Positions 150 to 28,308 of a stretch of 32,000 nucleotides of DNA are shown one piece after another (the first letter of the stretch is position 1; each line of letters begins with the position of its first letter). The position numbers and the translations under genes are program-made. This stretch comes from Erysipelotrichaceae bacterium. GTDB lineage: Bacteria; Bacillota_I; Bacilli_A; Erysipelotrichales; Erysipelotrichaceae. The stretch lies in assembly GCA_963676105.1 (NCBI GenBank), contig OY781039.1:1740001-1772000 (forward strand), read 5' to 3'. The notes beneath the pieces are model-generated. The model made no database searches and was not told the origin of the DNA. It saw only the letters and a list, made by a program, of their open reading frames with translations.

Positions 150-548
150 ATGAACTTTAAAGAAATTCTAATGAAACATGACATTCAACCATCAAACTAT
201 CGAATTAAGGTTTTAGAATGTTTAAGTCATTATGAAGAACATCCAACAGCGGAAGAGCTCTATCAAAGTTTATCAGATGTTTTTCCAACGATATCAAAGA
301 TGAGTGTCTATAACACAATCGAAGTTTTACTTAATGCTGGTCTAATTAAACGGATAACCATTGAAAACAATGAAGTACGTTATGACAGTATGTTAGAAAA
401 CCATGGTCACTTTAAATGTGAATCCTGTGGAAAAGTATTTAACTTCGACATTGATATGGATCACTTACCATTTAAGGGTTTAGAGAACTTTGAGATTGAT
501 AGTAAGGATGTGTACTTTAAAGGTATTTGTCCAGATTGTAATCATTAA
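150..548 (+). CDS. Fur-family metalloregulator (PerR-like by context)
   Basis: 132 aa with an N-terminal winged-helix region, an HGHFKCESCG motif and a C-terminal CPDC (two CxxC pairs, the structural Zn site of Fur/PerR/Zur). It sits directly upstream of dps and behind a palindromic operator. Confidence 0.85.
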   Translation: MNFKEILMKHDIQPSNYRIKVLECLSHYEEHPTAEELYQSLSDVFPTISKMSVYNTIEVLLNAGLIKRITIENNEVRYDSMLENHGHFKCESCGKVFNFDIDMDHLPFKGLENFEIDSKDVYFKGICPDCNH

Positions 549-583
549 TTTAAATTTAAAGCGCAGTTTGAAAGGAGTACAGT

Positions 584-1021
584 ATGTACAAAAAATTATG
601 TAAGTATTTAGCAAACCTTAACGTTCTTAACGTTAAACTTCACAACATTCATTGGAATGTCGTAGGACCTCAATTCATGAGTGTTCACAACTTCACAGAA
701 GAAGCTTATGACACCCTATTTGGCTATTATGATGATGTAGCTGAAATCCTAAAAATGAGAGGACATTATCCTCACGCATCTCTTGCGAAATATCTTGAAG
801 CGACAAGCATTAAAGAAATTGAATCAAAAGATATTTGTGTTGCAGACGCATTAAAATTGGTCAGTGATGACTTTGATGAAATGTTAGAATTAGCATTCAT
901 TATCCGTCGTGAAGCAGATGAACAAGGTGATGTAACTTTAGTTTCGACCCTTGAGGATCAAATTGCTTATTACCAAAAAAATCTTTGGTTTATTAAATCA
1001 ATGTTAACTAAAAAAGCTTAG
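584..1021 (+). CDS. dps: Dps-family DNA-protecting ferritin-like protein
   Basis: 145 aa. It carries the HWNVVGPQF...VHNFTEE motif typical of Dps ferroxidase-centre helices. RBS is GAAAGGAG. There is no terminator between it and the Fur-family gene. Confidence 0.9.
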   Translation: MYKKLCKYLANLNVLNVKLHNIHWNVVGPQFMSVHNFTEEAYDTLFGYYDDVAEILKMRGHYPHASLAKYLEATSIKEIESKDICVADALKLVSDDFDEMLELAFIIRREADEQGDVTLVSTLEDQIAYYQKNLWFIKSMLTKKA

Positions 1022-1027
1022 TTGAAT

Positions 1028-1055
1028 AAAGAGGTCAATAAATGACCTCTTTTAT
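1028..1055 (+). terminator. Rho-independent terminator after dps
   Basis: AGAGGTCA(1030-1037)-ataaa-TGACCTCT(1043-1050) is followed by TTTAT. Confidence 0.7.
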
Positions 1056-1056
1056 A

Positions 1057-1084
1057 TTGACTTCAGTGTTTAAAATGGTATATT
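1057..1084 (+). promoter_or_regulatory. Promoter of the DUF134/NifX operon
   Basis: TTGACT at 1057-1062, a 16-bp spacer, and an extended -10 TGgTATATT at 1076-1084. Confidence 0.55.
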
Positions 1085-1086
1085 AA

Positions 1087-1106
1087 TTATGAACATATGT
1101 TCATAA
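1087..1106. promoter_or_regulatory. Perfect 20-bp palindromic operator with a LexA/Cheo-box-like core
   Basis: TTATGAACAT|ATGTTCATAA is a perfect palindrome located between the -10 and the RBS (AAGGAGAAG). The inner 12 nt, GAACATATGTTC, equal the core of the B. subtilis LexA consensus CGAACATATGTTCG. Confidence 0.6.
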
Positions 1107-1115
1107 AGGAGAAGC

Positions 1116-1880
1116 ATGGGTCGACCACATAAAAAAAGATGTGTTAGTCATCGTCCACGATGCAATCAATTTACACCGCTATGTGCGCCTGATGAAGATG
1201 TCACATTGACTTTGGATGAGTTTGAAACCATTCAATGGATTGATGTAGAAGGATTGAGTCAAGAGAACTGTGCAAACGTTATGAACGTATCAAGAACTAC
1301 GGTACAAAGAGCTTATGCGAGTGCGCGTGAAAAAATTGGTTATGCGTTAGTTAATGGAGCAGCAATCAATATTGAAGGTGGACCAATTGAAATGGTTAAA
1401 CCTTCAGTAATTAATAAACATTTAAATGATAGAGGAGAATTACATTTGAAACTTGCGATTGGAATAATGAACAACAAAGTGTCTATGCATTTTGGACCAT
1501 GTAATGACTTTAGAATTATTACGATAGAAGACGGACAAGCTGTTAAATCAGAAGATATCCATGATGAAGTTCATGTTCATCAAGAACGTCCACAATTCTT
1601 GAAAAACCTAGGGATAGATGTATTGATTTTAGGTGGCATCGGGAAAGCTGCTTATAATCGTTTACTAGCATTAGATATTGAATGTATTGATGGGGCTGGG
1701 AAAGACTTAGATGAAGCACTTGAAGCCTATTTAAATAAAACGCTTGATAAGCCATTATTTGGTCATGCAAGCAATGGTCATGGAATGGGAAATCATGGTG
1801 TAAATGGACATGAACATCATGATCACGACCACATACATATCCACCACGCCAATGGTGGTAAGGGTAACAATAAAGCGTAG
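1116..1880 (+). CDS. Fusion protein: DUF134-type (UPF0251) HTH DNA-binding domain + NifX/NifB-like cofactor-binding domain + His-rich tail
   Basis: The N-terminus MGRPHKKRCVSHRPRCNQFTP...LTLDEFETIQWIDVEGLSQENCANVMNVSRTTVQRAYASAREK matches the DUF134 pattern (basic Cys-containing leader plus a sigma-70 region-4-like HTH). Residues ~110-210 are paralogous to the next ORF and look like the dinitrogenase FeMo-cofactor-binding (NifX/NifB C-terminal) fold family. The last 39 aa contain 11 His. Confidence 0.75.
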   Translation: MGRPHKKRCVSHRPRCNQFTPLCAPDEDVTLTLDEFETIQWIDVEGLSQENCANVMNVSRTTVQRAYASAREKIGYALVNGAAINIEGGPIEMVKPSVINKHLNDRGELHLKLAIGIMNNKVSMHFGPCNDFRIITIEDGQAVKSEDIHDEVHVHQERPQFLKNLGIDVLILGGIGKAAYNRLLALDIECIDGAGKDLDEALEAYLNKTLDKPLFGHASNGHGMGNHGVNGHEHHDHDHIHIHHANGGKGNNKA

Positions 1881-3700: not shown

Positions 3701-3734
3701 AAACCCTTGAGAACTTAACTCAAGGGTTTTTTTT
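3699..3734. terminator. Bidirectional rho-independent terminator between convergent genes
   Basis: AAAAA-CCCTTGAG(3704-3711)-aacttaa-CTCAAGGG(3719-3726)-TTTTTTTT. The stop codon of the minus-strand GGDEF gene lies in the stem. Confidence 0.75.
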
Positions 3735-5270
3735 ATCATAGATAACGACTCTATTACGACCAGTTGTTTTAGCCTTATACATCGCTTTGTCCGCTTTTGA
3801 GATAAGTGCATCAAGATTATCGTTTTCATCTGCAAATGCCACACCAGCACTTATGGTTAATTTAAAACTAGGATCTTCTTTAATAAATGAAAATTCCTGC
3901 ACATCACTTAATGTTCGTTGAGCAAGTTTAAGTGCTTCACTTTGACTATCAATTTTAATCAATACAACAAACTCTTCACCACCATATCGAGTGACAATAT
4001 CAGAGCTTCTAAACCGTTTTCTAAGTAATGCGCCAATATTTCGAATGACATCATCACCAACCGCATGACCATAGGTGTCATTGACGACTTTAAAGAAATC
4101 AATATCGAAGAATAATACAGCTAGTTTATAGAATTCATTATGATTAGATGATAACCAGTTGTTACCTTGATCAATAAGTTCACGTCGATTATTAAGTGAA
4201 CTGAGTTCATCGGTTTTAGATAATTTTTCAAGTTCTATTCTTGATTTAACTTTGTTTGTTGTTTGATTTATGATTTTTAAACGCCCTACCACTTTTCCTG
4301 AATTATTTTCAATGGATCTGGTTTTAACTTCCCAATATTCATCATGTTCAAAACTATAATATTCAAATATACCTGCATTATTGTTAAAAACTTCTTGTAA
4401 GTCTTTGTTTTGATTTAAGATGGTGTATTCAGAGTTAATCGCATTTTTATTTAATTCAACTGAATGGTGGTTTAAAAACTTTTCAGCTTCAAAGTTATAA
4501 TCCAGCACAATGTTACGATTACTAATAACGATAATTCCATCATGGCTTGATTGAAATAAATCAAAACGTACTTTGGACTTAAGTTGTAAGTTATCATTCA
4601 ATATTATTGAAACTGCTAATATAAATACACTTATAGGTAAGACGAGTGCTGTGTAATCTAAAGGTAGATTAAAAGGATCAAAGAGTCCAATTAAAACCGC
4701 AATAACAGGGAGAATACTGGCAAGTAACATCGCTCCATATTTCCGTTTCTCATTTGGTCCGCTTTTTACAAATTCAATCACAAACATAACGATAACGGCT
4801 AAGGTTAGAACTAATACATAAACAATATGTATGTAATAACCTAAACCAGAAGTTGTGTTGATTAGCCAAAAATTATCCAATTGAACTAAATGAGGATCAG
4901 AATAGAACCCGTTATGGAAATCATTGGTAAAACGCATGAGTATTGTGATAAATGGAAGTATGAAAAATATAAATGAAGTAAGTGAAAAGAATTTCTTAAT
5001 TTTCCCTAAATAAAGCAAACTAACAACTAGCCAGACTGAATTAATTAACGGGATAGGTATGTATTCAAAATCAACCCAAAAGATGGCTGCTTCAACGGTA
5101 TGGCTGTTGAGTTCAGCAAGATATCCAAAATCATACATAAATACCAACAACATTAAAAAGGCAAGGGCATAGGAATATTCACTCTTACCATTATTTATTA
5201 AATAGAAAGCTAAAAAAGTTGTGATTAATGCCGCGATAAAAATATACATCGTTATAATGTTCAACAACAT
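3720..5270 (-). CDS. Membrane-anchored diguanylate cyclase (multi-TM sensor + PAS-like linker + GGDEF)
   Basis: 516 aa. The N-terminal ~230 aa form 7-8 hydrophobic helices. The C-terminal domain has RYGGEEFVVL (a GGEEF active site) with an RSSD I-site five residues upstream, plus DIDFFKVVNDTYGH. RBS is AAAAGGAGAG. Confidence 0.9.
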   Translation of the reverse strand: MLLNIITMYIFIAALITTFLAFYLINNGKSEYSYALAFLMLLVFMYDFGYLAELNSHTVEAAIFWVDFEYIPIPLINSVWLVVSLLYLGKIKKFFSLTSFIFFILPFITILMRFTNDFHNGFYSDPHLVQLDNFWLINTTSGLGYYIHIVYVLVLTLAVIVMFVIEFVKSGPNEKRKYGAMLLASILPVIAVLIGLFDPFNLPLDYTALVLPISVFILAVSIILNDNLQLKSKVRFDLFQSSHDGIIVISNRNIVLDYNFEAEKFLNHHSVELNKNAINSEYTILNQNKDLQEVFNNNAGIFEYYSFEHDEYWEVKTRSIENNSGKVVGRLKIINQTTNKVKSRIELEKLSKTDELSSLNNRRELIDQGNNWLSSNHNEFYKLAVLFFDIDFFKVVNDTYGHAVGDDVIRNIGALLRKRFRSSDIVTRYGGEEFVVLIKIDSQSEALKLAQRTLSDVQEFSFIKEDPSFKLTISAGVAFADENDNLDALISKADKAMYKAKTTGRNRVVIYDKKNP

Positions 5271-5365: not shown

Positions 5366-5396
5366 ATTAAAAACCCCAATCAATTGATTGAGGTTT
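5366..5396 (-). terminator. Rho-independent terminator of the repeat-protein gene
   Basis: On the minus strand, CCTCAATC-aatt-GATTGGGG (one G-U pair) is followed by TTTTT. Confidence 0.65.
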
Positions 5397-5400
5397 AAGA

Positions 5401-6687
5401 CTAATTTCTTTTACCTGTTGTTGTAGGTTTTTGTTGAATCCCAGAGTCTTCAGGTCTTGATCCTGCTGCATCAGATGTTCCTGCATCAGGATTACTAAAT
5501 TCACCTGCACTAGGATTAGGTTCTTGTGATAGTATTTCTGGATATGTTGTTGATAATGTATCGTGGAGTAATTCTAAACTTTCAATATCTGTTGCGGTAG
5601 TCAAACTTGTTTCATAAGTTGAGGTGTCGTAACCTGCAGTACTTATTTGACTTAACCAATCTTGGATAATTGATGTTAATCTTTCAATTTGTACATCATC
5701 TTGAGAAAGACGTGGATTAGTGTCAAGGATATCGCTATAAGTACTTGTGATTTCGTCATATAAAGTTTGTAATGCATCAAGATCTTCTATGACACTTAAA
5801 CTTATTTCGTAATCTGTGGTTGTTATACCTGCATCAGTGAGTTGAATTAATAAATTTTCAATGCTTGAGGTTAAACGATCGATTTGTATATCATTGCGTG
5901 CAGACTCATTAGTTGGTAATACATCAACATATGTTGTAGTTAATTCATCTAATAAAGCTAACAAACTATCCAAATCAGTGTTATCGACTAGATTAGCTTC
6001 ATAAGCACTAACATCGATTCCTTGTTCAGTTAAGTTGATGAGTATTGCATTAATGTTTGTGATAACACGATCAACTGCACGTGTGCTTGTGTTGAGTTCA
6101 GGTAATATCGCAATGTCAGAATATTCGCTTTGTAGAGTATCGTATAAAGCCAATAACTCAACGGTGTTCGCATCAGCTAATATTGTTTCATAATCTGCAA
6201 TATCATATCCAGCTTCACTTAGATCTTCCAACCATGCACTGATAATTGAGGATAAGTGTAACTCTAAAAATGTATCAGTTGTTGAGTTGATTGTATCTAA
6301 AGAATTAATGTAGCTAGAAAGTATATCATTATATAAATTTTCTAAACCACTTAAATCTGCATCAACCAATTCTGTTTCATAACTTGTTGTATCAATGCCT
6401 AATAAACTTAATTGTGCTAACCAGTCATTAATAATCGTAGTTAATCTTTGGGTTGCTTCAACATTAACATCAATTGGCTCAGCAGCTCTTAAATCAACAT
6501 TGGTAAAGTTTGAGAAGAGTCCATCTTTACTGTAATAATGGCCATCCTCATATGCGAAGGAAAACATTTCATTTGAACTAACTGAAATGCTTGTTATTTC
6601 CTTGCGAATGACAGAATCTGAGTTTACTACTGAGAATGTAGCTGCTAGTGTTAATGAACTAAGTGTAAATAATAATTTATTTTTCAT
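5401..6687 (-). CDS. Secreted protein with five tandem ~63-aa helical repeats and a Pro/Gly/Ser/Asp-rich tail
   Basis: 428 aa. The N-terminal signal-like sequence is MKNKLLFTLSSLTLAATFSVVNS, with no lipobox Cys. Five repeats share the pattern ..RLTS.I..WL.QL..AG.D.S.YE..L..A.D...L..LYD.L.S.Y.DIL. RBS is AAAAGGAGA. Confidence 0.8.
   Translation of the reverse strand: MKNKLLFTLSSLTLAATFSVVNSDSVIRKEITSISVSSNEMFSFAYEDGHYYSKDGLFSNFTNVDLRAAEPIDVNVEATQRLTTIINDWLAQLSLLGIDTTSYETELVDADLSGLENLYNDILSSYINSLDTINSTTDTFLELHLSSIISAWLEDLSEAGYDIADYETILADANTVELLALYDTLQSEYSDIAILPELNTSTRAVDRVITNINAILINLTEQGIDVSAYEANLVDNTDLDSLLALLDELTTTYVDVLPTNESARNDIQIDRLTSSIENLLIQLTDAGITTTDYEISLSVIEDLDALQTLYDEITSTYSDILDTNPRLSQDDVQIERLTSIIQDWLSQISTAGYDTSTYETSLTTATDIESLELLHDTLSTTYPEILSQEPNPSAGEFSNPDAGTSDAAGSRPEDSGIQQKPTTTGKRN
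5530..6456 (-). repeat. Five tandem protein-level repeats (aa ~78-130, 141-194, 203-256, 267-321, 332-386)
   Basis: I aligned these by eye from the translation; the period is 62-65 aa. Similarity is at the protein level rather than as near-identical DNA. Confidence 0.8.
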
Positions 6688-6773
6688 GAATATCTCCTTT
6701 TATACAAATATAGATATTTGTAATCCGTTCACTACACTAGAGTTTGATTATTTTGTTTTAGACGAAAATTTAT

Positions 6774-6803
6774 ATAAAAAAAGAAATCCTTTTGGGATTT
6801 CTT
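6774..6803 (-). terminator. Rho-independent terminator after the anti-sigma-like gene
   Basis: On the minus strand, AAGAAATCC-caaaa-GGATTTCTT is followed by TTTTTTT. The stem overlaps the TAA stop at 6802-6804. Confidence 0.65.
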
Positions 6804-7899
6804 AGTTGTTTTTGCCACTTTGTGGACTACCTGTGTTCTCCTTTGGCGTTTGTGCTCCGTTTTCTGGGGCTTCACCTATTGGATCACCATCACCTGCATT
6901 ATCAGGTTTTTGAGGATCCTGTGCTGCGTTATCAGAAGGTGTTCCAGGATTTGGGTTTGGAGATTGATAATTAGATAATAAATCACCATATTCATCTAAG
7001 ATTTGATCATGTAATGCATGTAAGGTATCGATATCTGCCTCAACAAGTGTTGCTTCATATGCGGATACATCAATATCTTGTAGTGCTAATTCATCAATCA
7101 TACTTTGAATTTTAATCGTTAATTGATCAGCTGATATATCACTAATGTTAATTTGATAGGTATGTGTTAATTCAGTTAATTTGTCTTCATTTGAGAAAAC
7201 CTCTTTAACACTTAGATAGGTTCCATCCTCTTGTAGAATTTCGCCATTGATGACGTATAGTCCAACGGGTACATTTTTTTCATCTGCTTCAAATTTAGTT
7301 TGCATGTCAGATTTTAATTCAACCACATAGACTGAATTAAGTGTTTCACTTGTTTGGATACGATCTTGTATTTTGAGTTCTAAGGCTTCCTCACAATCGC
7401 TAGTGCATTCTTCATTTACTACGGTTGTGACTAATACGTAATCATCAATAATATCAGTGGTATCGATAAAACCAGCTTCAGTAGCTCTGGATACAATGGC
7501 TTCAATCGCTAAATCAACATCCATGCCAATTAAATCAGATACATCGATCGTTAGCGCATCATCATTTAATGACGCAATGGATTCAACCGTATTATCATCA
7601 TATACACTGATTTCAAAACTTGGATTAATATCAATCGATACATAAGCAATAACTGTTTTTTCTTGTATTACATCTATAATGCCTTCATCACTTGGGCTAT
7701 TAAGGAATGTGAAGACTAATACTGCACTTGCGGCTACTAAGATTGTAGCTAAGCCCTTTAACCATGTCTTGTTCATAAAATTCTCCCTTTTTTGTGTTTT
7801 AAAAGGTAAACCATCTTTTTGCGCACGAAGATATATTGCTTCTAAGGTTTTATCTTCATTGAAGAATATTGAATTTTGTCGTTGTTTATTCTTTTTCAT
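6802..7899 (-). CDS. Single-pass membrane anti-sigma-factor-like protein with an extracytoplasmic domain containing one copy of the neighbour's repeat
   Basis: 365 aa. It has a ~47-aa basic cytoplasmic N-terminus, a TM helix LATILVAASAVLVFTFL and a ~300-aa external part. It lies 38 nt downstream of an ECF sigma gene. RBS is AAAGGAG. From memory, the juxtamembrane segment AYVSIDINPSFEISV..SLNDDA resembles the post-TM region of RsgI-type anti-sigma factors; this is unverified. Confidence 0.7.
   Translation of the reverse strand: MKKNKQRQNSIFFNEDKTLEAIYLRAQKDGLPFKTQKRENFMNKTWLKGLATILVAASAVLVFTFLNSPSDEGIIDVIQEKTVIAYVSIDINPSFEISVYDDNTVESIASLNDDALTIDVSDLIGMDVDLAIEAIVSRATEAGFIDTTDIIDDYVLVTTVVNEECTSDCEEALELKIQDRIQTSETLNSVYVVELKSDMQTKFEADEKNVPVGLYVINGEILQEDGTYLSVKEVFSNEDKLTELTHTYQINISDISADQLTIKIQSMIDELALQDIDVSAYEATLVEADIDTLHALHDQILDEYGDLLSNYQSPNPNPGTPSDNAAQDPQKPDNAGDGDPIGEAPENGAQTPKENTGSPQSGKNN
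6976..7131 (-). repeat. Single copy (aa 257-308) of the ~63-aa helical repeat found 5x in the downstream gene
   Basis: ADQLTIKIQSMIDELALQDIDVSAYEATLVEADIDTLHALHDQILDEYGDLL aligns with repeat 3 of the neighbour (..INAILINLTEQGIDVSAYEANLVDNTDLDSLLALLDELTTTYVDVL). Codons differ (Ser is TCC here and AGT there), so the conservation is at the protein level. Confidence 0.75.
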
Positions 7900-7937
7900 C
7901 GGATGGCTCCTTTCACACCACTAGAGGGGTTAATTCT

Positions 7938-8450
7938 TTATTTAGACGAAAACTTATCTTTTAGTTTCAATAAATTTCGTTGGGCAATACTTTTTATCGT
8001 GCTCTCTGCGATATTTAATTTTTCTGATAATTCTCTAAAACTGATATCAAATCTGTAACGCGCAACCATGATTGTTTTATCCGGTTCACCTAAGTCATTG
8101 ATTTCTTCAAATATTTGATCTACAGTCGTTAAGTCTAACACTTCGTTTTCTAAATCACTTTGATCTTTAATGTTGTTAAAGATATATTCATCATTATATT
8201 TTAAAGTATCTTCTTTGTTATGTTGTTTATAGTAATTAGATATATGATGATTCGCAATGGTTTTAAGATATGCGCTGGGATATTCAATTTCTTTATCACT
8301 TTTTAACCAATGTTTATAGAAGTCATAAAAAACATCTTGAACAATATCTTGGGCATCGTTTACATTTTGTGTCTTTATTAAAACATGCTTCGATATGATC
8401 TCGTAGTTGGCATGATAGATATTTTCGAAATCTTCTATGTTTCTCTTCAC
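7938..8450 (-). CDS. ECF-type (group 4) sigma-70 family RNA polymerase sigma factor
   Basis: 170 aa. It has a region-2-like DAQDIVQDVFYDFYKHW and a region-4 HTH ISFRELSEKLNIAESTIKSIAQRNLLKL. The start is GTG with no Shine-Dalgarno. Confidence 0.85.
   Translation of the reverse strand: MKRNIEDFENIYHANYEIISKHVLIKTQNVNDAQDIVQDVFYDFYKHWLKSDKEIEYPSAYLKTIANHHISNYYKQHNKEDTLKYNDEYIFNNIKDQSDLENEVLDLTTVDQIFEEINDLGEPDKTIMVARYRFDISFRELSEKLNIAESTIKSIAQRNLLKLKDKFSSK
7945..7969 (-). promoter_or_regulatory. Candidate ECF-type promoter for the anti-sigma-like gene
   Basis: On the minus strand, TGAAAC (7969-7964) is followed by 15 nt and then CGTC (7948-7945), about 45 nt upstream of the ATG at 7899. This resembles the AAC/CGT pattern of ECF promoters. 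It lies within the 3' end of the sigma gene. Confidence 0.3.
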
Positions 8451-8465: not shown

Positions 8466-8769
8466 GGTAAATATGACGAAAATATAGCATTATATCAAAA
8501 AGATATGCCTCGATATAAAAGAAGTATAGTGAAACAAAATGCATAATTTTGAGTTCGATATCTTTAAGATATCCTTATAAATTTCGGATTTCTATGAAAA
8601 TCAACAAATATAATTAATTATTTCTAAATAAAAATCTAAATCTTATTTAATTTCTGAATTTTATTTTAGATTTTCCCAAAAAATCATTTATTAAAAAATA
8701 TCTTATTTTCACATTGTTTCATTTTGATGAAAATATTTCAGAGTGTGCTTAAAAATGACTGATTTTTTA

Positions 8770-8888: not shown

Positions 8889-11800
8889 ATGAGTCAATCT
8901 TATGGTGCACCTGCTAAACAGGGCATGTATGATCCAAATTTAGAAAAAGACAATTGTGGTGTTGGTTTCATTGCCCAAATGAAGGGTAAGAAGTCCCATG
9001 ATATTGTTGCGCAAGGTATCCAAATTCTAGCTAATCTACACCATCGTGGTGCAGTCGGTGCTGATCCTTTAACAGGGGATGGCGCAGGTATTTTACTTCA
9101 AGTACCACACAAATTCTTAGGGAAAGTTGCGAAAGAAAATGGTTTTGAATTACCAAAAGCTGGTGAATATGGTGTAGGTATGATGTATCTACCTCAAGAA
9201 CCGAATGCACGTAATTTCTGTGAGGGTGTTGTTGAAAAGGTCGTTGAAGCTGAAGGTTTTAAAGTCTTAGGATGGCGTGAAGTACCTTTAAACATTAATG
9301 CATGTGGTCCAACCGCAAGTGGTACACGGCCAATTGTTAACCAAGTTTTCATTGAAATGGGTGATATGGATACTGCCGCATTTGAAAGAAAACTATACAT
9401 TATTCGTAAACAAATTGAATTAAGTATTAGTGAAGCACAACATGCTTATACTGAAAGTTTTTACGTATGTAGTTTATCCTCTAAAACAATCGTTTATAAA
9501 GGACAATTATTAGCATTTCAAATTCCTGAATTCTTCCCGGATTTAGTGGATACAGATATGGAAAGTGCGATTGCGCTTGTTCATCAACGTTTCTCAACAA
9601 ATACATTCCCATCTTGGGATCGTGCTCAACCATTTAGATATTTAGCACATAATGGTGAAATCAATACCTTACGTGGAAATGTTAACTGGATGAATGCCCG
9701 TGAAGGTGTTATTGAATCAGAAGTTTTTGGTGATGAACTTAAAAAAGTTTATCCAGTTATTGAGACAAATGGTTCTGACTCCGCTAACTTAGATAATGTT
9801 TTAGAACTATTACTCGCATCTGGTAAATCACTAGCACATGCGATTAGTATGCTCATTCCAGAAGCTTGGCAAGAACATGAAAATATGTCAGAAGATAAAA
9901 AAGGTTTCTATGAATACCATGCTGGTTTAATGGAACCTTGGGATGGTCCAGCCGCTGTTGCCTTTAGTGATGGTGTACAAGTTGGGGCAACCTTAGACAG
10001 AAACGGGTTACGTCCAGCACGTTACGCTGTGACTGAAGATGATGTCGTGGTCATGGCATCAGAAACAGGTGTTATTCCTTTCCCAACGGATTCAATTGTT
10101 AAAAAAGGAAGACTTCAACCAGGCAAAATGTTCTTAATTGATACTGAAGAAGGACGTATTATTTCTGATGAAGAAATTAAAGAACAATTATCAACTGCTA
10201 AACCATATAAAGAATGGGTTGAACGTAATAAACTCACTTTAGATGATTTAGCTGGTCATCATGATCATGTTCGATTAGATGACACGATGCTTCAAAACTT
10301 CCAAAATATCTTTGGATACTCTGAAGAAGAATTAAAGAAAATATTAACACCAATGGCTGTTGATGGTTCAGAAGCAATCGGTTCTATGGGGAATGATGCA
10401 GCATTAGCGGTTTTATCTGAAAAACCACAGATGCTTTATAACTACTTTAAACAACTGTTTGCACAAGTTACCAATCCTCCAATCGATCCAATTCGTGAAA
10501 AACTTGTTATGAGTAATATTCAATTATTGGGTGATCGTGGAAGTTTCTTAGGTGAAATGGATGCAGATACAGATATTAAATTCATTGAACTTAAACAACC
10601 AATCTTAACCAATGCTGAACTAGAGAAATTAGCTGCAGTTCGTTTAAAAGATTTCAGATCGATAAAATTTCCAACCATCTTCAATTTAAATGAAGGTGGC
10701 AAAGGTTTAGAAAATGCTTTAACTCGTTTAAATAAACAAGTTGAAGATGCGGTTAATGAAGGTTACAACATGATTATTCTTAGTGATAGAGCGGTTGAGA
10801 AAAACTCAGCAGCTATCCCTATGTTGTTGGCAGCTTCAGCAGTTCATCATCATTTAATTGATCAAAAACTACGTACTAAAGTGGATATTATCGTTGAAAC
10901 AGCGGATGCGAGAGATGTTATGCATATGGCATTACTTGTAGGTTATGGTGTTGATGCGATTAACCCATACTTAGCGTTTGATTCGATTGAAAAACTTGTT
11001 GAAGATAATCTTTATATCTACAACGATGAAATGACTGTTAAACAAGCTCATAAAAACTATATTAAAGCGATTGATAAAGGCTTACTCAAAATCTTCTCTA
11101 AGATGGGTATTGGAACTTTACAATCCTACCATGGTGCTCAAATCTTTGAAGCAGTTGGTTTAAACTCAGAAATCATTTCGAAATACTTTGAAGGTACTGT
11201 TTCACGTATTGAAGGAATTGGACTTGATGTCATTGCTGAAGAAGTTGCGATTAGACATAAAGCAGCTTATGCGATTAATAATCCATACATTGGTTTATTT
11301 GAAGGTGGTTCTCACCAATACCGTAAAGGTGGAGAAAATCATTTATTCAGTCCAGAAACCATTCATTTACTACAACACTCATGTCGTACAAATGACTATA
11401 AACTCTTTAAAGATTATTCCAAGATTATTAATGATCAAGCATCTCATTTAAATACGATTCGTGGTTTACTCCGCTTTAAGAGTCGTCCAAGTATATCAAT
11501 TGATGAAGTTGAACCAATTGAAAAGATTCTGCCTCGTTTTGCGACTGGCGCGATGAGTTTCGGATCTTTATCTAAAGAAGCTCATGAAAACTTAGCGAAA
11601 GCAATGAACATGATTGGTGGTAAATCCAATTCAGGTGAAGGCGGTGAATCAGTTGAACGTTACTATAACGATGCGACTCGCTCATCCATCAAACAAGTGG
11701 CATCTGGTCGTTTTGGAGTCACCACAGAATACTTAGTTAACTGTACAGAACTTCAAATTAAAATGGCGCAAGGTGCTAAAGCCGGTGAGGGTGGTCACTT

Positions 11801-13409
11801 ACCAGGACACAAAGTGTCTGAGGCGATTGCGAAAGTTAGACACTCAACACCAGGTATTTCATTAATTTCACCTCCTCCTCATCACGATATTTATTCAATT
11901 GAGGATTTAGCGCAACTCATTTATGACCTTAAGAACGTCAACGACAAAGCTCGTATCAATGTTAAGTTGGTTTCTGAAGCAGGTGTTGGGACGGTTGCGG
12001 CAGGTGTTTCTAAAGCACACGCAGATGTCGTTTTAATCGCAGGGCATGATGGTGGTACAGGGGCATCTCCTGTAAGTTCCATTAAATATGCAGGTCTACC
12101 TTGGGAGTTAGGATTAGCTGAAACTCAACAAACACTATTATTAAATGATTTACGTAGCCGTATTGTTGTCCAAACAGATGGTCAACTTAAAACAGGTCGT
12201 GATGTCGCGATCGCATGTCTACTAGGAGCTGAAGAATTTGGTTTTGCGACTGCACCGCTTGTGGTATCAGGTTGTATCATGATGCGTAAGTGTCAAAAGA
12301 ATACCTGTCCAGTTGGTGTTGCGACGCAAGATCCAGAACTTCGTAAACACTTTAAAGGTAAACCAGAACATGTTGTTAACTTCTTTACCTTTATCGCAAG
12401 TGAGCTTAGAGAATATATGGCTCAACTAGGTTTCAGAACGATTGATGAAATGATTGGTCGTGTGGATTGCTTAGAACCAAACACAGATATCATGAACTGG
12501 AAAACTCAAGGCATTAACTTTGATTCCATTCTTTATAAACCAGAATTACCTTCACGTATTCAAACGAAGAATACGATGAAACAAGATCACAACTTAGATG
12601 AAATCTTTGATAGAACACTCATTAAAGATGCGAAAGATGCGATTGAAAACGGGAAGAAAGTTTCTAAGAACTATGATATTAGAAATATTCATAGAACTGT
12701 TGGGACCATGTTAGCAGGTGAAATCACACGTGTTAATAAATCTGAAACATTAGCTGAAGATAGTATCCACTACAAATTTACAGGTAGTGCTGGACAATCT
12801 TTCTCAGCCTTTGGCGTTAAAGGTATGACTTTCGAACTTGAAGGTGATGCGAATGACTACATGGGTAAAGGTTTATCTGGTGGTAAGATTATTGTTTATC
12901 CACCAAAGGATGCGACGTATAAAGCTGAAGAAAACATTATTGTTGGTAATACATTACTTTATGGGGCAACCTCTGGGGATGTTTATATCAACGGTATTGC
13001 AGGTGAGCGTTTCGCTGTTCGTAACTCAGGTGTTAATGCGGTTGTTGAAGGAACAGGGGACCACGGTTGTGAATATATGACTGGTGGAACAGCTGTTGTC
13101 TTAGGACGAACTGGACGTAACTTCGGTGCTGGTATGAGTGGTGGTCAAGCCTTTGTCTTTGATGAGGCTGGTGACTTTGTTGAAAAACACTTAAATACTC
13201 AAATCGTTATGCATCTTCCGTTAGAGGATAAAGCGGATATTGAACTTGTTAAGTCAATGATTGAAAAACATGTTGAATATACAAACAGTCCTAAAGCGAC
13301 TGAAATTCTGAAGAACTTTGATAAGAACATTTCTAAATTTGTTCGTGTCATCGCACCAGAATACAAAGAAATTTTAGATAAAAGAGCAGCTGAAGCTGCA
13401 GGGAAATAG
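8889..13409 (+). CDS. gltB: Glutamate synthase large subunit
   Basis: 1506 aa. After a 22-aa propeptide comes the Ntn-amidotransferase Cys (..EKDN-CGVGF). It has an FMN/Fe-S central domain (..[10 protein letters not shown].., [15 protein letters not shown]) and a C-terminal GXGXG beta-helix domain. RBS is AAAAGGAGA. Confidence 0.97.
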
Positions 13410-13418
13410 GAGGACATC

Positions 13419-14888
13419 ATGGGTAAAGTTACAGGATTTAAAGAAATAGCTCGTAAAAATGGTGATTATTACGATCCTAAAAAACGTGTCCTTGATTGGA
13501 ACGATATCTATATCCCTCAAGATGAAGCTGGTATAAAAGAACAAGCAGCTCGTTGTATGGATTGTGGTGTGCCATTTTGTCATTCTAACTGTCCTTTAGG
13601 AAATATTATTCCTGATTTTAATGATTTGGTTTATAACGACCAATGGAAAAAAGCATTAGAAGTTTTACAAACAACAAATAACTTCCCTGAGTTTACTGGT
13701 AAGATTTGCCCAGCACTTTGTGAGGGTGGTTGTGTGCTTGGGTTAATTGCTGATCCAGTTGCGATTGAAGATATTGAACTTGCGATTGCGGAAAAAGGTT
13801 GGAAAGAAGGTTGGATTCAACCACAACCTCCACGTATTAAAACAGGTAAGAAAGTAGCGATTGTTGGATCTGGTCCTGCTGGTATGGCAGCGGCTCAACA
13901 ATTAGCACGTGCTGGACATGACGTTACTTTATTTGAAAGAAACGCTAATGTTGGTGGTGCAATGCGTTATGGCATTCCTGTTTATAAACTACCTAAATCA
14001 ATGATTGATCGTCGTGTTGATCAAATGAAAGCAGAAGGCGTTACGGTTAAATGTAATACCAATGTAGGTGTTGATATCACTAAAGATGAACTAATGGCAC
14101 AATTTGATGCGATTGGTTTAACTGGTGGATCAACTGAACCACGTGATTTAACTATCTCTGGTCGTGAACTTAATGGTTTACACTTTGCGACGGATTTCTT
14201 AAAAGAAGCCAATAGTGTAAATACAGGTGAGAAAGATACAGATTATGCGATTACTGCAAAAGGTAAAAGAGTAGTTGTCATCGGTGGTGGTGATACAGGT
14301 TCTGACTGTATTGGGACTAGTCTAAGACAAGGAGCTATTGAAGTTACTCAACTTGAGTTATTACCAATGCCTCCAAAAGAAAGAGATAACTCTCAACCTT
14401 GGCCTGTCTTCCCAAGACTTTATAAAACATCATCTTCACATAAAGAAGCGATGGCTGTTTTAGATCATGATATCCGTATGTTCTCAATTGGAACAAAAGA
14501 GTTTATCAATGATGGAAAAGGTAACCTTAAAGGTCTTAAATGCGTTAAGTTAGATTGGATTACACCAGAAGGTGGTGGCCGTCCACAAATGAAAGAGATT
14601 GAAGGATCTGAATTCATTATTGATGCCGAACTTTGTATGTTTGCGATGGGATTCTTACACCCAGAACACACAGGATTACTTGATGACTTAGGTGTTGAGT
14701 ATGATCCACGTGGTAATGTCGCAACTGATAAGTCTTATAAAACTAAAGTTGAGAAAGTATTTGCAGGTGGTGATATGAGAAGAGGTCAATCTCTTGTTGT
14801 TCATGCGATTGCAGATGGACGTAAGTTAGCTAAAGACATGGATGAGTTCTTAATGGGTGAATCCTATCTTAGAAGTTCATTAGGTTAA
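13419..14888 (+). CDS. gltD: Glutamate synthase small (NADPH) subunit
   Basis: 489 aa with N-terminal Fe-S cysteines (CMDCGVPFC, CPLGN, CPALCEGGC) and two Rossmann motifs (VAIVGSGPAGMAAA, VVVIGGGDTGSDC). It starts 9 nt after the gltB stop, with RBS GGAGGA. Confidence 0.95.
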   Translation: MGKVTGFKEIARKNGDYYDPKKRVLDWNDIYIPQDEAGIKEQAARCMDCGVPFCHSNCPLGNIIPDFNDLVYNDQWKKALEVLQTTNNFPEFTGKICPALCEGGCVLGLIADPVAIEDIELAIAEKGWKEGWIQPQPPRIKTGKKVAIVGSGPAGMAAAQQLARAGHDVTLFERNANVGGAMRYGIPVYKLPKSMIDRRVDQMKAEGVTVKCNTNVGVDITKDELMAQFDAIGLTGGSTEPRDLTISGRELNGLHFATDFLKEANSVNTGEKDTDYAITAKGKRVVVIGGGDTGSDCIGTSLRQGAIEVTQLELLPMPPKERDNSQPWPVFPRLYKTSSSHKEAMAVLDHDIRMFSIGTKEFINDGKGNLKGLKCVKLDWITPEGGGRPQMKEIEGSEFIIDAELCMFAMGFLHPEHTGLLDDLGVEYDPRGNVATDKSYKTKVEKVFAGGDMRRGQSLVVHAIADGRKLAKDMDEFLMGESYLRSSLG

Positions 14889-18288: not shown

Positions 18289-18972
18289 CTAAGCGCTTTT
18301 TAGTTTAGTCTTAATCATTTCAACACATTCATTCATCACTTCATCATGACTTTTTTGTCTGAAGTCTTCAGGTAAAAGTGGAGGATGAAAGTGTACTGAA
18401 AGTGTATGTTTTACAGGACTTGTTCCATCGCATTCAAAACCATAGTTTTGAGTCACTGGTACAATTTTAGCTTTAGCTAAGAAAGCTGGAAGTACAGCAC
18501 CAGCTTTAAAGGGTAGTAAGTCTTGTCCTTTAGCTCGTGTTCCTTCAGGAAACACTAGAACTGATTTATTTGATTTTAAGAAACGAGTTGCTTGTCTAAG
18601 CATACTCACGTTTTGATCAAAATCATCTCGATCAAAAGTAATAAACTCGATGAGTTTGCCCCAATCTGCAATGACAGGTAACTTTAAGTTTTCCTTTTTA
18701 GAAATAAAAGTCATTGGATTTGGGTTAGCTGCGATAAGGAGTAATGGATCAAAGGTTCCTTGATGATTTGATATGTAGTAAACCGCTTCATCAGTTGGAA
18801 TATTATCGATACCAGTGAATTCAGTTTCTAGTTTTAAATCTTTGTAAAAGCCTTTACAGATATCATGAATAATCGCATAACGACCGGCAAAATCGAGTGG
18901 CTCTGCTTCTTTGGTTTTAAGTTTTGCCTTGACTAAGGTTTTAGAAAACTTTAACCATTGTGTAATCTTCAC
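18289..18972 (-). CDS. plsC: 1-acyl-sn-glycerol-3-phosphate acyltransferase
   Basis: 227 aa with the acyltransferase motifs NHQGTFDP (HX4D) and FPEGTR. It overlaps the fabZ stop by 1 nt. Confidence 0.85.
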   Translation of the reverse strand: MKITQWLKFSKTLVKAKLKTKEAEPLDFAGRYAIIHDICKGFYKDLKLETEFTGIDNIPTDEAVYYISNHQGTFDPLLLIAANPNPMTFISKKENLKLPVIADWGKLIEFITFDRDDFDQNVSMLRQATRFLKSNKSVLVFPEGTRAKGQDLLPFKAGAVLPAFLAKAKIVPVTQNYGFECDGTSPVKHTLSVHFHPPLLPEDFRQKSHDEVMNECVEMIKTKLKSA

Positions 18973-19400
18973 TAGACACCTACTTTAAAAATTAAATCAG
19001 CACTCGCAGCAACTTTATCGTTTACACTTGCTTCAGCATGGGCAAAGCCAACTGAACCACGAAGTTTAGTGAGTTTTACATGTAGTTTCATGGTGTCACC
19101 TGGATAAACAGGTTGTTTGAACCGCACATTATCCATACCTGCAAAGAAAGCAATTTTTCCTTTGAATTCTTCTTTAGATAAAAGAAGAACTGCTCCTGTT
19201 TGAGCTAATGCTTCCATGATCATAACACCTGGTAGGATGTGATGCTCTGGGAAGTGACCCATGAATTGCATTTCATTAGCTGATACGGCTTTTACGCCAA
19301 TGATTTCATCGTCGCCAATGATTTCATCGATACGATCAACTAAGAGAAATGGATAACGATGAGGAATGATTTCTTGAATTTGATTTGAATTATAAATCAT
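18972..19400 (-). CDS. fabZ: 3-hydroxyacyl-ACP dehydratase
   Basis: 142 aa with the FabZ signature HFPEHHILPGVMIMEALAQ. Confidence 0.93.
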   Translation of the reverse strand: MIYNSNQIQEIIPHRYPFLLVDRIDEIIGDDEIIGVKAVSANEMQFMGHFPEHHILPGVMIMEALAQTGAVLLLSKEEFKGKIAFFAGMDNVRFKQPVYPGDTMKLHVKLTKLRGSVGFAHAEASVNDKVAASADLIFKVGV

Positions 19401-19401
19401 C

Positions 19402-20640
19402 TTAACCCTCCCATTTCTTCATAATGATTGAAGCATTATGTCCACCAAAACCAAGTGAGTTACTCATAACATAAGTTAAATCAGATTTTCTTGGTGTATT
19501 AGGTACGATATCTAAATCGCAGAGTTCATCTGGATTTTGATAATTGATAGTTGCAGGAATTAAGTTGTTTTGTAAAGCTTTAACACAGATAATCGCTTCA
19601 ACAGCACCAGATGCCCCTAATAGATGACCTGTATAAGATTTTGTTGAAGATACAGGTACTTTATAAGCATAATCACCAAATGTTTTCTTAACTGCTTTAG
19701 TTTCAGTTTTATCATTTAATGGCGTTGAAGTACCATGGGCATTGATATATGAAATATCAGTTGCTTGAAGTTGTGCATCTTCAATCGCAAGTTGCATTGC
19801 GTAAGCACCCATTGCGCCATCTTCTAGTGGTGCAGTGATATGGTTTGCATCACATGTTGCACCATAACCAACCATTTCAGCATAGATTTTTGCGCCACGT
19901 TTTTTAGCATGTTCTAATTCTTCTAGAATTAAGACAGCGCCACCTTCACCCATGACAAATCCTGATCGGTCTGCATCAAATGGGATAGATGCACGGTTTT
20001 TATCTTCTCCTGTGTGTAAGGCTCTCATAACGGCAAATCCAGCGATTCCTACAGGTGTAATGGCTGCTTCTGATCCACCGGTTAACATGATGTCTTGATA
20101 ACCATCACGGATTTTATGGAAAGCTTCACCAATTGCGTTAGTACCAGCAGCACAGGCAGTTACTACTGAATAACATTGTCCTTGAGCTTTTTGATCAATC
20201 GCAACTTCACCAGCTGCTAAGTTGATTAATGTTTTTGGGATAAAGAAAGGGGAAATTCGTGAAGGTCCTCTTTCAGTTAAACTATTGCGTGCATCTTCTA
20301 ATGATTGAAGTCCACCAATACCACTACCTAGGATACAACCATATCGAAGGGCATTGATTTCTTCAACATTTAAGTTCGCATCGGCAACAGCTTGTTTAGC
20401 CGCAATACGTGCAAATAATGTAAATAAATCATTATTTTTACTTTCACGTAATGTGAAATATTGCTCAGTATCTAAATCTTTAACTTCGGCTGCTAATTTT
20501 GCCTTGTGATCAGTTGTATCAAATTTACTAATGAAGTCAATGCCACATTTACCTTCTTCAATACTTGTCCAAAGTTCATCAACAGTGTTTCCGATTGGGC
20601 TTACAACACCTAAACCTGTAATTACAACTCTTCTTTTCAT
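19402..20640 (-). CDS. fabF: 3-oxoacyl-ACP synthase II
   Basis: It has the motifs VVTACAAGTNAIG (active-site Cys), NAHGTSTPLND and GHLLGASG. I prefer the start MKRRVVITGLG at 20640, which has SD GAGGTGG. The ORF-track start at 20676 would overlap fabG by 26 nt. Confidence 0.93.
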   Translation of the reverse strand: MKRRVVITGLGVVSPIGNTVDELWTSIEEGKCGIDFISKFDTTDHKAKLAAEVKDLDTEQYFTLRESKNNDLFTLFARIAAKQAVADANLNVEEINALRYGCILGSGIGGLQSLEDARNSLTERGPSRISPFFIPKTLINLAAGEVAIDQKAQGQCYSVVTACAAGTNAIGEAFHKIRDGYQDIMLTGGSEAAITPVGIAGFAVMRALHTGEDKNRASIPFDADRSGFVMGEGGAVLILEELEHAKKRGAKIYAEMVGYGATCDANHITAPLEDGAMGAYAMQLAIEDAQLQATDISYINAHGTSTPLNDKTETKAVKKTFGDYAYKVPVSSTKSYTGHLLGASGAVEAIICVKALQNNLIPATINYQNPDELCDLDIVPNTPRKSDLTYVMSNSLGFGGHNASIIMKKWEG

Positions 20641-20650
20641 TTCATCCACC

Positions 20651-21385
20651 TCACATAACCATTCCGCCATCAACATTGATGACTTGACCTGTAATATAAC
20701 TTGCGTTGTCAGAAGCTAGAAATAATGCCGCATGGGCTATATCTTCTGTACTTCCAAAACGATTTAAAGGGATTTGTTTAAGAATTCCTTCTTTGACATT
20801 ATCATTTAAGACATCTGTCATTTTTGTTTGAATAAAACCAGGGGCAATCGCATTAACTGTAATGTTTCTACTTGCGAGTTCTCTTGCGACTGATTTTGTA
20901 AAAGCTATTAAGCCACCTTTAGATGCTGCATAGTTGGCTTGACCAGCATTACCTATTTGACCAATTACACTAGCCATATTAATGATACGACCATATCTTG
21001 CCTTCATCATTGGTTTTAAAACAGCTTGAGTGACATTAAAGGCACCTTTTAGATTTGTTTCTAATACCGCATCGAAGTCTTCTTCTTTCATGCGCATAAG
21101 AAGTCCGTCTCTTGTAATACCTGAGTTATTCACAAGGACATCAATCTTTTCAAATTTTTCAAGTGTAGCATTTATCATAGTTTGAACTGACTCTGCATTT
21201 GACACATCACATCCAACGACTAAAGTTTCAACACCTAAATTTTCGCATTCTTTCGCAACAGCTTCTGCACCATCTTTAGAACGTGCATAGTTGATCACAA
21301 CATTGTATCCTTCTTTGGCAAAGGCTAAGGCAACGCCTGCCCCAATGCCACCTGAGGATCCTGTAATTAAAGCGACTTTACTCAT
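20651..21385 (-). CDS. fabG: 3-oxoacyl-ACP reductase
   Basis: 244 aa SDR with ITGSSGGIG and the catalytic motif NYAASKGG. Confidence 0.93.
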   Translation of the reverse strand: MSKVALITGSSGGIGAGVALAFAKEGYNVVINYARSKDGAEAVAKECENLGVETLVVGCDVSNAESVQTMINATLEKFEKIDVLVNNSGITRDGLLMRMKEEDFDAVLETNLKGAFNVTQAVLKPMMKARYGRIINMASVIGQIGNAGQANYAASKGGLIAFTKSVARELASRNITVNAIAPGFIQTKMTDVLNDNVKEGILKQIPLNRFGSTEDIAHAALFLASDNASYITGQVINVDGGMVM

Positions 21386-22302
21386 ACTAATATTCCTTTC
21401 AATTGATTGAGCTGTTCCATTGATTCAACGGTATATACATCAACATTTTCATTTATTTGTTTTACAAATGAAGTGAGTGTTTTACCTGGTCCAATCTCAA
21501 TAAATGTATCAATACCATCGAGTATCATTTGCGAAACCATTTTCTCAAATAATACTGAATTGGAGATTTGGCGGGTTAATAAGTCTTTTGAGAACTCAGC
21601 TGTTTCTCCAATGACGTTATAGTAAACTGGCATGTCTGGTGTTTTAAATTCAATAGGATCTAAAACTTGACCTAAGTTCTTGCTTGCCTCATTTAATAAA
21701 GCAGAATGGAAAGCACCAGAAACTCTTAGTGGTATAACACGTCCAACTTTTTCTTCTTTTAGGACTTCTTCGGCCTTTTTAAGACCTTTAAGTTCACCCG
21801 TTAAAACAATTTGTTTGGGTGAGTTATAGTTCGCAATTTGAACTAAACCATGATCTTGAATATCATCTTTCATGATTCTCTCAGCAATATACGCTTGATC
21901 ACCATTAATGACGGCAGTCATACCTGTGGTTCCGCTAGGCAAAGCTGTAGCCATTATGATGCCTCTTTGTCTTACGATATTTAAGGCTGTATTGAAGTCA
22001 ATCGCATTTGCATAAGTTAAAGCACTATATTCGCCTAAACTTAAACCACCCACAGCACTTGGTTTAATTCCTAAAGATTCAACCGCTTTGGCAATCGCTA
22101 TTGAAGTTGCGAGCAAACATGACTGAGTATATTCAGTTTGATTAATTCGACCTTCAGCATCTGTAAAACAGATTTCTTTTAAATCAAAATCTAAGTCAAC
22201 TGAATCATAAACAGCTTTAGATACGTCAGATTCTTGGTAGAAATCAGATCCCATACCAACTTTTTGGGCACCTTGGCCAGCAAATAAGAATGCTATTTTC
22301 AT
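21382..22302 (-). CDS. fabD: Malonyl-CoA:ACP transacylase
   Basis: 306 aa with FAGQGAQ and the active-site motif GLSLGEYSA. Confidence 0.93.
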   Translation of the reverse strand: MKIAFLFAGQGAQKVGMGSDFYQESDVSKAVYDSVDLDFDLKEICFTDAEGRINQTEYTQSCLLATSIAIAKAVESLGIKPSAVGGLSLGEYSALTYANAIDFNTALNIVRQRGIIMATALPSGTTGMTAVINGDQAYIAERIMKDDIQDHGLVQIANYNSPKQIVLTGELKGLKKAEEVLKEEKVGRVIPLRVSGAFHSALLNEASKNLGQVLDPIEFKTPDMPVYYNVIGETAEFSKDLLTRQISNSVLFEKMVSQMILDGIDTFIEIGPGKTLTSFVKQINENVDVYTVESMEQLNQLKGILV

Positions 22303-24301: not shown

Positions 24302-24313
24302 ATTTGTTTCTCC

Positions 24314-26082: not shown

Positions 26083-26083
26083 A

Positions 26084-28307: not shown

Positions 28308-28308
28308 C

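Follow-up and report, generated by a model that had tools for sequence, protein, structure and literature searches.

In a 32-kb stretch of the genome of an uncultured Erysipelotrichaceae bacterium (hereafter 'the window', that is, the whole stretch of DNA that was analysed, taken from the one assembly of this single genome), three consecutive minus-strand genes encode a sigma factor of the extracytoplasmic function (ECF) type, a single-pass membrane protein and a secreted protein built from five tandem helical modules. No names for the three proteins were found in databases. Our finding, judged from sequence and structure model, is that the membrane protein belongs to the RsgI-like anti-sigma factors and possesses a SEAL autoproteolytic domain with an intact DINPS site. 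The sigma/anti-sigma pair is a conserved Erysipelotrichaceae family joining an ECF-type cytoplasmic half to an RsgI-type extracellular half, and the third gene, by its sequence, arose from the anti-sigma gene through tandem duplication and remodelling and is not the source of the module which both proteins carry. Taken together, we consider it somewhat probable (about 55%) that a conserved ECF/SEAL pair, a duplicated gene for the sensor arm, RsgI-like signalling and a decoy-like free arm jointly provide the best explanation of the locus. The three genes are:

7938-8450 (-): ECF-type sigma factor gene with GTG start, 170 aa
6802-7899 (-): single-pass SEAL-type (RsgI-like) anti-sigma gene, 365 aa
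5401-6687 (-): repeat-protein gene, 428 aa, with predicted signal peptide, EDG..FSN remnant, five modules and disordered tail

These three open reading frames (ORFs) had been described, at the same positions, in an original prediction made from the letters of the DNA alone, which had likewise recognised an ECF-type sigma factor, a single-pass anti-sigma-like protein and, as the third product, five helical modules behind a signal peptide. Its proposal of a sixth module copy in the anti-sigma protein is borne out by a hidden Markov model (HMM) which, when built from the five repeat-protein modules alone, finds aa 258-312 of the anti-sigma factor with 42 bits (E 3.8e-15); the peptides then quoted are present at aa 274-308 (nt 6976-7080) and at aa 222-257 of the repeat protein, and the differing Ser codons (TCC versus AGT) are also found. 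Since the copies share 26-45% protein identity while their third codon positions agree at chance level, none of them is recent. The observation that the 44-aa cytoplasmic part of the anti-sigma protein is devoid of an HxxxCxxC motif holds as well. With regard to the module, which had been left unmatched, neither the anti-sigma factor nor the repeat protein has a Pfam match to GA, GA-like or FIVAR domains at E<=1, and to this extent the module has indeed no named counterpart; aa 83-221 of the membrane protein constitute an RsgI_M/SEAL domain that had been missed and from which the probable mode of signalling follows.

The sigma factor comprises Pfam domains Sigma70_r2 (region 2, aa 27-79) and Sigma70_r4 (region 4, aa 115-164), passes the NCBIfam superfamily model TIGR02937 (sigma70-ECF; 55.4 bits, cut-off 42.9) and has the ECF sigma factor SigW as its sole relative in the PDB. 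It is small and consists of sigma2 and sigma4 only, as is characteristic of ECF (group 4) sigma factors, and the adjoining transmembrane anti-sigma gene, located on the same strand after a gap of 38 nt, is a further trait of this group. No SigI model is found among its top NCBIfam matches, and the two features that define canonical SigI/RsgI systems, an RsgI_N domain and a SigI-type partner (sigma2 plus a SigI-specific C-terminal domain), are both absent from the pair. On the 5' side of the sigma gene, an extended -10 element (TGATATAAT, 8489-8497 (-)) is conserved in the related loci L001 and L002, and a TTTCACTATACTTCTTTTATAT block upstream of it is common to the window and these two loci; the two elements probably form a housekeeping-type promoter of the sigma operon. 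The motif ATTTTCGTC, of which the window has two copies only, one 5' of the sigma gene and one 5' of the repeat gene (expected 0.48, two or more in 7 of 100 shuffles), was considered as a shared ECF promoter and rejected: its copy at the repeat gene is the duplicated 3' coding end of the sigma gene (AAG TTT TCG TCT AAA) and, unlike TGATATAAT, it is not kept upstream of orthologous sigma genes.

The architecture of the anti-sigma factor was derived from Pfam, Foldseek and an AlphaFold2 (AF2) model which was built on 98 homologues and has a mean predicted local distance difference test score (pLDDT) of 75, with values >90 for the SEAL domain and the module. From the N- to the C-terminus, its features are:

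7816-7857 (-): aa 15-28, cytoplasmic N-terminal helix, the presumed sigma-binding element (AF2 pLDDT ~66-70)
7702-7767 (-): aa 45-66, transmembrane helix (AF2 helix; mean Kyte-Doolittle hydropathy 2.12)
7237-7653 (-): aa 83-221, SEAL / RsgI_M autoproteolytic domain (Pfam PF23750 and Foldseek)
7618-7632 (-): aa 90-94, DINPS motif with the predicted autocleavage bond N92/P93 (motif and literature)
7189-7230 (-): aa 224-237, EDGTYLSVKEVFSN segment, the most N-terminal stretch demonstrably common with the repeat protein
6961-7137 (-): aa 255-313, three-helix module, the 'sixth copy' (AF2 helices 257-273, 279-286 and 290-310, pLDDT 92-95)
6805-6960 (-): aa 314-365, disordered P/N/G/D-rich tail ending GKNN (pLDDT 32-35)

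Pfam model RsgI_M (PF23750) matches aa 85-217 with 70.2 bits (gathering threshold 25.3; E 3.4e-19). The top structural match of the SEAL model in the PDB is 8T9N, the SEAL domain of B. subtilis RsgI (template modelling (TM) score 0.88, root mean square deviation 1.9 A, E 6e-9), followed by the periplasmic domains of C. thermocellum RsgI1, RsgI2, RsgI6 and RsgI9; entries 8HDJ, 8HEQ, 8HER, 8U9O and 8HEP give TM scores of 0.63-0.74. RsgI proteins cleave themselves at a conserved Asn-Pro bond between strands beta1 and beta2 (PMC10328401, PMC10556640), and the cleaved fragments are held together by the beta-sheet; once the ectodomain is removed, a site-2 protease can act and sigma is set free (PMC10556640, PMC10328401). 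In the window protein, the DINPS motif is likewise located between two AF2 strands (83-90 and 94-100), and is kept in 109 of 112 homologues with I91, N92, P93, S94 and F95 being invariant. Of the extracytoplasmic elements that may follow a SEAL domain, a disordered region or a sensing domain, the disordered region is present (aa 313-365, pLDDT <50).

The cytoplasmic part is of a different kind. RsgI_N (PF12791), which in its canonical form is a beta-barrel binding the SigI-specific domain (PMC6582324), is found neither in the window protein nor in its 103 closest homologues, although the distant matches P0104-P0111 carry PF12791. Instead, the N-terminal helix exhibits an FNED..L..I..A pattern that is conserved in the family alignment, and we infer that this helix binds sigma. 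It is the missing RsgI_N domain, the short N-terminal helix and the ECF sigma factor which together lead us to conclude that an ECF-type half and an RsgI-type half are joined in this pair.

When compared with RsgI-SigI of B. subtilis (Brunet 2022, PMC9732909; Brogan 2023, PMC10556640), the window protein is likewise single-pass with a juxtamembrane SEAL domain and a conserved Asn-Pro site (27% identity, TM score 0.88 to 8T9N), possesses a disordered C-terminal tail with many polar and charged residues, and is encoded directly 3' of its sigma factor. It differs in that (i) the partner is a 170-aa ECF-type sigma factor (sigma2 and sigma4) and not SigI, (ii) a short cytoplasmic helix takes the place of the RsgI_N beta-barrel, (iii) a conserved three-helix module is located between the SEAL domain and the tail, and (iv) the tail itself is short (~53 aa) and has a conserved GKx(x) ending. 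As for RsgI1-9/SigI1-9 of C. thermocellum (Chen 2023, PMC10328401; Wei 2019, PMC6582324), the periplasmic domain is of the autocleaving type, here by prediction from sequence, and several paralogous pairs with variable C-terminal sensing parts exist per genome. Unlike in C. thermocellum, however, the sensing part consists of a helical module (one to four copies) and a tail rather than of a carbohydrate-binding domain, and the sigma interface is of another type.

The pair is conserved. Among 112 homologues of the anti-sigma factor, those with a name come from Erysipelotrichaceae metagenome-assembled genomes, with the exception of one from Candidatus Izemoplasma. A scan of GTDB species genomes yielded 78 loci, with two or three paralogous pairs in several genomes. 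Of 52 anti-sigma ORFs with a module, 46 are immediately preceded by an ORF for a homologous ECF-like sigma factor. Paralogous ECF-sigma/SEAL-anti-sigma pairs within one genome, some of them in tandem, are exemplified by L017/L026, L028/L037/L052, L012/L029/L060 and L014/L031/L041; such multiple pairs resemble the SigI/RsgI sets of C. thermocellum. Family members carry the module at one and the same place; its consensus is approximately kLreRlE.aL.kLe.nGvD.teyR.RLenA..eemLqIQaEvk, and its number varies from one to four per anti-sigma factor: most have one, while at least eight ORFs have two to four in tandem (L007, L027, L041, L042, L052, L056, L060; P0094, P0097, P0098, P0127, P0128), so that the module has been amplified repeatedly. 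The EDGTYLSVKEVFSN segment is likewise conserved throughout the anti-sigma family, and a GKx(x) ending is found in 65 of the 112 homologues, most commonly as GKGN. That the extreme C-terminus (window 6805-6816 and 5404-5415) is conserved on an otherwise disordered tail may point to a dedicated signal for recognition or anchoring. At anti-sigma position 275 (7075-7077, in the turn between helices 1 and 2 of the module), Asp is found only in the window anti-sigma factor; Gly is present in 88 of 89 family members, and at the equivalent turn of all five repeat-protein modules. Relaxed evolution of the window anti-sigma module was rejected, since four lineage-specific changes compare with four in L001 and only G275D stands out.

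The repeat gene, in contrast to the pair, is confined to the window. It is missing 3' of the anti-sigma gene in relatives with known context at 78%, 63%, 60%, 53% and 40% anti-sigma identity, and it is missing from all 78 genome loci. A six-frame scan confines the module within the window to the anti-sigma and repeat genes, with no third site. The features of the repeat gene and its flanks are:

6781-6803 (-): terminator-like hairpin with U-run, overlapping the anti-sigma stop codon (-9.3 kcal/mol, z -3.7)
6724-6774 (-): relic of the junction between sigma 3' end and anti-sigma 5' untranslated region, paralogue of 7908-7958
6619-6687 (-): aa 1-23, predicted Sec signal peptide (MKNK, 17 hydrophobic aa, VNS/DS; hydropathy of the h-region 1.89)
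5521-6462 (-): five tandem modules of 57-65 aa, by alignment, at 6271-6462 (aa 76-139), 6079-6270 (aa 140-203), 5887-6078 (aa 204-267), 5692-5886 (aa 268-332) and 5521-5691 (aa 333-389)
5404-5520 (-): aa 390-428, disordered tail ending GKRN (pLDDT ~30; colinear with the anti-sigma tail, z 2.7)
5371-5396 (-): ancestral anti-sigma terminator, now 3' of the repeat gene (hairpin of -13.3 kcal/mol; orthologous in L001)

The paralogous origin of the repeat gene is established by orthology of its right flank, paralogy of its left flank and colinearity of the two proteins. In the right flank, the sequence that follows the repeat-gene stop codon (TAG tcttaaacctcaatcaattgattggggttttt, and after it the promoter and start of the neighbouring GGDEF gene) is orthologous to that which follows the anti-sigma stop in the closest relative, L001 (TAA tctaaacctcaatcccattgaggtttttt, and after it the same GGDEF start). 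In the left flank, the junction relic is ~80% identical to 7908-7958 over 50 nt (score 42, compared with 17.2 +/- 2.7 for shuffles and reached in none of 5000), and none of the other non-self matches in 1120 genomic windows scores higher; the new hairpin at the anti-sigma stop (6781-6803) aligns with the 3' coding sequence of sigma and thus arose within the duplicated segment. A blastn search with the 5' region of the repeat gene returned nothing besides the junction relic. The two proteins are colinear in the EDG..FSN segment, the module and the tail terminus: before the module, EDGTYLSVKEVFSN of the anti-sigma factor pairs with EDGHYYSKDGLFSN at aa 47-60 of the repeat protein (z 3.4; 14 of 2000 shuffles reach the score; colinear with the module), P/N/G/S-rich tails follow the module in both proteins and end in GKNN and GKRN, respectively, and BLASTP aligns anti-sigma residues 243-365 with repeat-protein residues 312-428 at E 1.3e-11.

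Synteny places these events in order. In outgroups, a FUR-ferritin-DUF134 block directly follows the anti-sigma gene, with neither a GGDEF nor a repeat gene; a GGDEF gene is inserted after the anti-sigma gene in L001 and the window, and only the window has the repeat gene. The inserted gene encodes a 7TM-GGDEF diguanylate cyclase (window 3720-5270 (-); L001 9215-10780) that is not present in more distant relatives, and its L001 copy has an in-frame TAG near the start, indicative of a pseudogene or of a sequencing error. Read most simply, a tandem duplication of ~1.2 kb, which began within the 3' end of the sigma gene and extended as far as the stop codon of the anti-sigma gene, created a second copy which then lost the sigma-binding and SEAL parts, kept the post-SEAL arm, expanded the module to five copies and now begins with a signal-peptide-like N-terminus. 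Insofar as the alignments of the flanks are concerned, the birth of the repeat gene is traceable to the base pair at one end. Dating by synonymous sites was abandoned for lack of resolving power: codon bias alone gives 0.51-0.55 identical codons by chance, against which values of 0.50 among repeats, 0.60 between anti-sigma factor and repeats and 0.62-0.72 for orthologues have to be read.

Several features suggest that the repeat gene is maintained and functional, namely an intact 1287-nt ORF of 428 codons in ~33% GC DNA, a ribosome-binding site (AAAGGAG) 7 nt before the ATG, the conserved GK(R/N)N end and the module positions I9, Y26, E27, L30, L39, L42, Y50 and L54, which are invariant in all five modules. 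Each of these modules scores 86-98 bits against the module HMM. The composition of the N-terminus points to a Sec signal peptide, and terminator-like hairpins (-9.3 and -13.3 kcal/mol) lie on either side of the gene. An AF2 model from the single sequence shows long-short-long helices in each module at low confidence (pLDDT 58), and a fold search with this model yielded no match at E<=0.001. Pfam matches of the repeat protein (Phage_connect_2, DUF2203 and others) were dismissed as noise, all being below the cut-offs. Among 5.8 billion protein clusters no homologue of the repeat protein was found but itself, and 1.84 billion representative proteins yielded no other with five modules.

An HMMER search of the same 1.84 billion representatives with the module gave just 18 matches at E<=1e-3. 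The module is therefore rare, and the case of a promiscuous surface repeat, by which the original prediction would have been refuted, does not apply. Matches outside the family were sorted in three groups: (i) archaeal proteins, small and secreted, in which a related 'GYDVSAI' module is repeated three or four times, (ii) two proteins with short 'GYDTSAYE' repeats, and (iii) a protein L-like surface protein, with whose Pfam GA-like domains the module aligns in register. The archaeal matches (L088 1901-2761, L090 6001-6900 and L009 262-975, corresponding to P0119, P0125 and P0115; E 1e-11 to 5e-4) contain three or four tandem copies of 'L..L...GYDVSAI..A..GD.ETA..L' which no Pfam family covers, and the neighbouring genes eIF-1a, CofH and MJ1433 point to methanogen-like archaea. 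In outline the module resembles GA and GA-like modules (PF01468, PF17573) in its size of ~45-55 aa, its three predicted helices and its occurrence in tandem arrays, and the pattern L..L..aG(I/Y)..s.Y...L..A.t.e.l.aL..e(I/L) is in register between them. The profile comparisons are marginal: hhalign of the module with the GA-like repeats of P0122 yields a probability of 52% (E 1.4e-4), P0122 is found at E 2e-4 when the library is searched with the module profile, and the GA modules in the PDB reach E 0.23 (2N35) and E 0.91 (1GJS). Unlike for GA modules, there is no sign that the window module binds albumin or immunoglobulin. Hence, judged from model and profiles, the module appears marginally GA-like, in shape only.

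It is then by analogy with RsgI that a mechanism can be proposed. The anti-sigma factor would cleave itself constitutively at N92/P93, as the literature on RsgI implies, and its two fragments would stay joined through the SEAL beta-sheet. When the arm, that is, the module and the tail, engages the cell wall or a ligand, force would pull the ectodomain off, and a site-2 protease would then cut the membrane stub so that sigma is freed. As the weakest step, the repeat protein would be a free, secreted and multivalent copy of the arm capable of reaching the envelope target of the sensor. Sensing by RsgI of B. subtilis resides in its disordered tail, and PBP1, through a similar tail, acts at the same cell-wall sites (PMC9732909). 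The PBP1 tail (PMC9732909) is thus a precedent for a second envelope protein that carries an anti-sigma-like disordered tail to the same wall sites, although PBP1 is an enzyme unrelated to RsgI whereas the repeat protein is a sensor-arm paralogue devoid of a catalytic domain. Most economically, the repeat protein would be a threshold-setting decoy that competes with the sensor arm for engagement or buffers it, and we put this role forward tentatively; it would not require direct binding to the module of the sensor. Soluble decoy paralogues of membrane receptors are secreted proteins that descend from that portion of a membrane sensor which engages the ligand. We know of no example of such a decoy for a bacterial SEAL or RsgI protein, and it is by its derivation from the sensor arm that the repeat protein may be likened to one. 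The more specific proposal of a secreted paralogous decoy of a mechanosensor, acting at the same wall sites or on the same ligand and tuning the threshold of sigma activation, is doubtful at present; if the decoy were also sigma-dependent, a negative feedback loop would be closed.

Nearly as likely as a decoy is that the protein has acquired a new function in the envelope or outside the cell (for example, as a rod-like spacer, an adhesin or a matrix component) and exerts no feedback on sigma, a reasonable minority view. The hairpins on both sides suggest a separate transcription unit, the modules have diverged far from the parent (26-41% identity), they remotely resemble three-helix bundles of the GA-like kind known from Gram-positive surface proteins, and the archaeal secreted proteins with tandem related modules have no sigma system nearby. 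On the other hand, the disordered tail and the GK(R/N)N end have been kept, which argues that the targeting of the ancestral arm is retained, and neither an anchor motif nor a new domain was gained. The original prediction had favoured yet another role, in which the secreted protein, through homotypic contacts between modules, would act as ligand or co-sensor and so govern the release of sigma. Apart from the adjacency of the genes and the homology of the module, one may quote for it that Asp at position 275 of the window anti-sigma factor, facing Gly in the five modules, could reflect co-adaptation. Two premises of this model did not survive: the direction of sharing is reversed, in that the module is ancestral in the anti-sigma ectodomain and the neighbour was derived from the anti-sigma gene, and the three genes are not conserved as a trio, since the pair is seen in 46 of 52 loci and the repeat gene in no relative examined, including the one at 78% anti-sigma identity; the original prediction had itself named this outcome as refuting. 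As the trio occurs in one of ~52 loci while the pair does without the repeat gene in all others, as paralogy fully accounts for the sharing of the module, which is thereby no evidence for homotypic binding, as there is no sign of self-association of the module, and as the window module shows no excess of lineage-specific change over L001 (4 vs 4), we regard the homotypic model as rather improbable. A non-functional duplicate that is decaying and has yet to be deleted is still less probable, and indeed very unlikely. It would agree with the gene being a singleton in all databases searched, with the failure to detect a promoter and with the large divergence in sequence; however, a 1287-nt ORF is still open in AT-rich DNA, the hydrophobic core and eight invariant positions are kept in five modules whose synonymous sites are saturated, and a good ribosome-binding site precedes a signal-peptide-like start.

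Several observations weigh against the overall explanation that we prefer, a conserved ECF/SEAL pair with RsgI-like signalling and a duplicated, decoy-like arm. The cytoplasmic half of the anti-sigma factor is not RsgI-like, so that the cascade of cleavages is an extrapolation for which only the ectodomain was used. Residues 1-46 of the repeat protein do not map confidently onto the anti-sigma factor: when aligned with its transmembrane/beta1 region, locally or with cheap long gaps, they reach z 1.4-3.7 only, and a route to the repeat gene through 'two internal deletions' is but one possibility. Of the diagnostic sites in the junction relic (n=11, counted by hand), four match the window and five L001, and the duplication may thus be as old as the split of the window and L001 lineages, with later loss from L001. 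Finally, no sigma-70-type promoter was detected in the 114-nt spacer between the new terminator and the start codon of the repeat gene.

The surroundings of the locus are ordinary housekeeping genes (18289-28752 (-), 8889-14888 (+) and 150-1880 (+): a fab/acc fatty-acid synthesis cluster, gltB-gltD for glutamate synthase, and FUR-ferritin-DUF134), and no site-2 protease gene lies within the 32-kb window.

While the significance of these findings is bounded by one uncultured genome and a mechanism borrowed from relatives, the coupling of a SEAL ectodomain to an ECF sigma factor by a short helical N-terminus implies that the sensing and the inhibitory halves of such anti-sigma factors are interchangeable. 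To the known architecture is added a three-helix module that had no name before and is placed after the SEAL domain, ahead of the disordered tail; its variation from one to four copies suggests a tuning of the reach or the valency of the arm. One genome also encodes the arm as a free protein with a predicted signal peptide, which represents a natural experiment: if the force model of SEAL signalling is true, the free arm should compete with the sensor. The locus moreover offers a boundary-resolved case of the birth of a new gene by tandem duplication, loss of domains and internal expansion of a repeat. The locus varies a known theme: sensing of the SEAL/RsgI type is coupled to an ECF sigma factor and includes an unnamed helical module, and a secreted copy of the sensor arm, peculiar to this lineage, is added to it.

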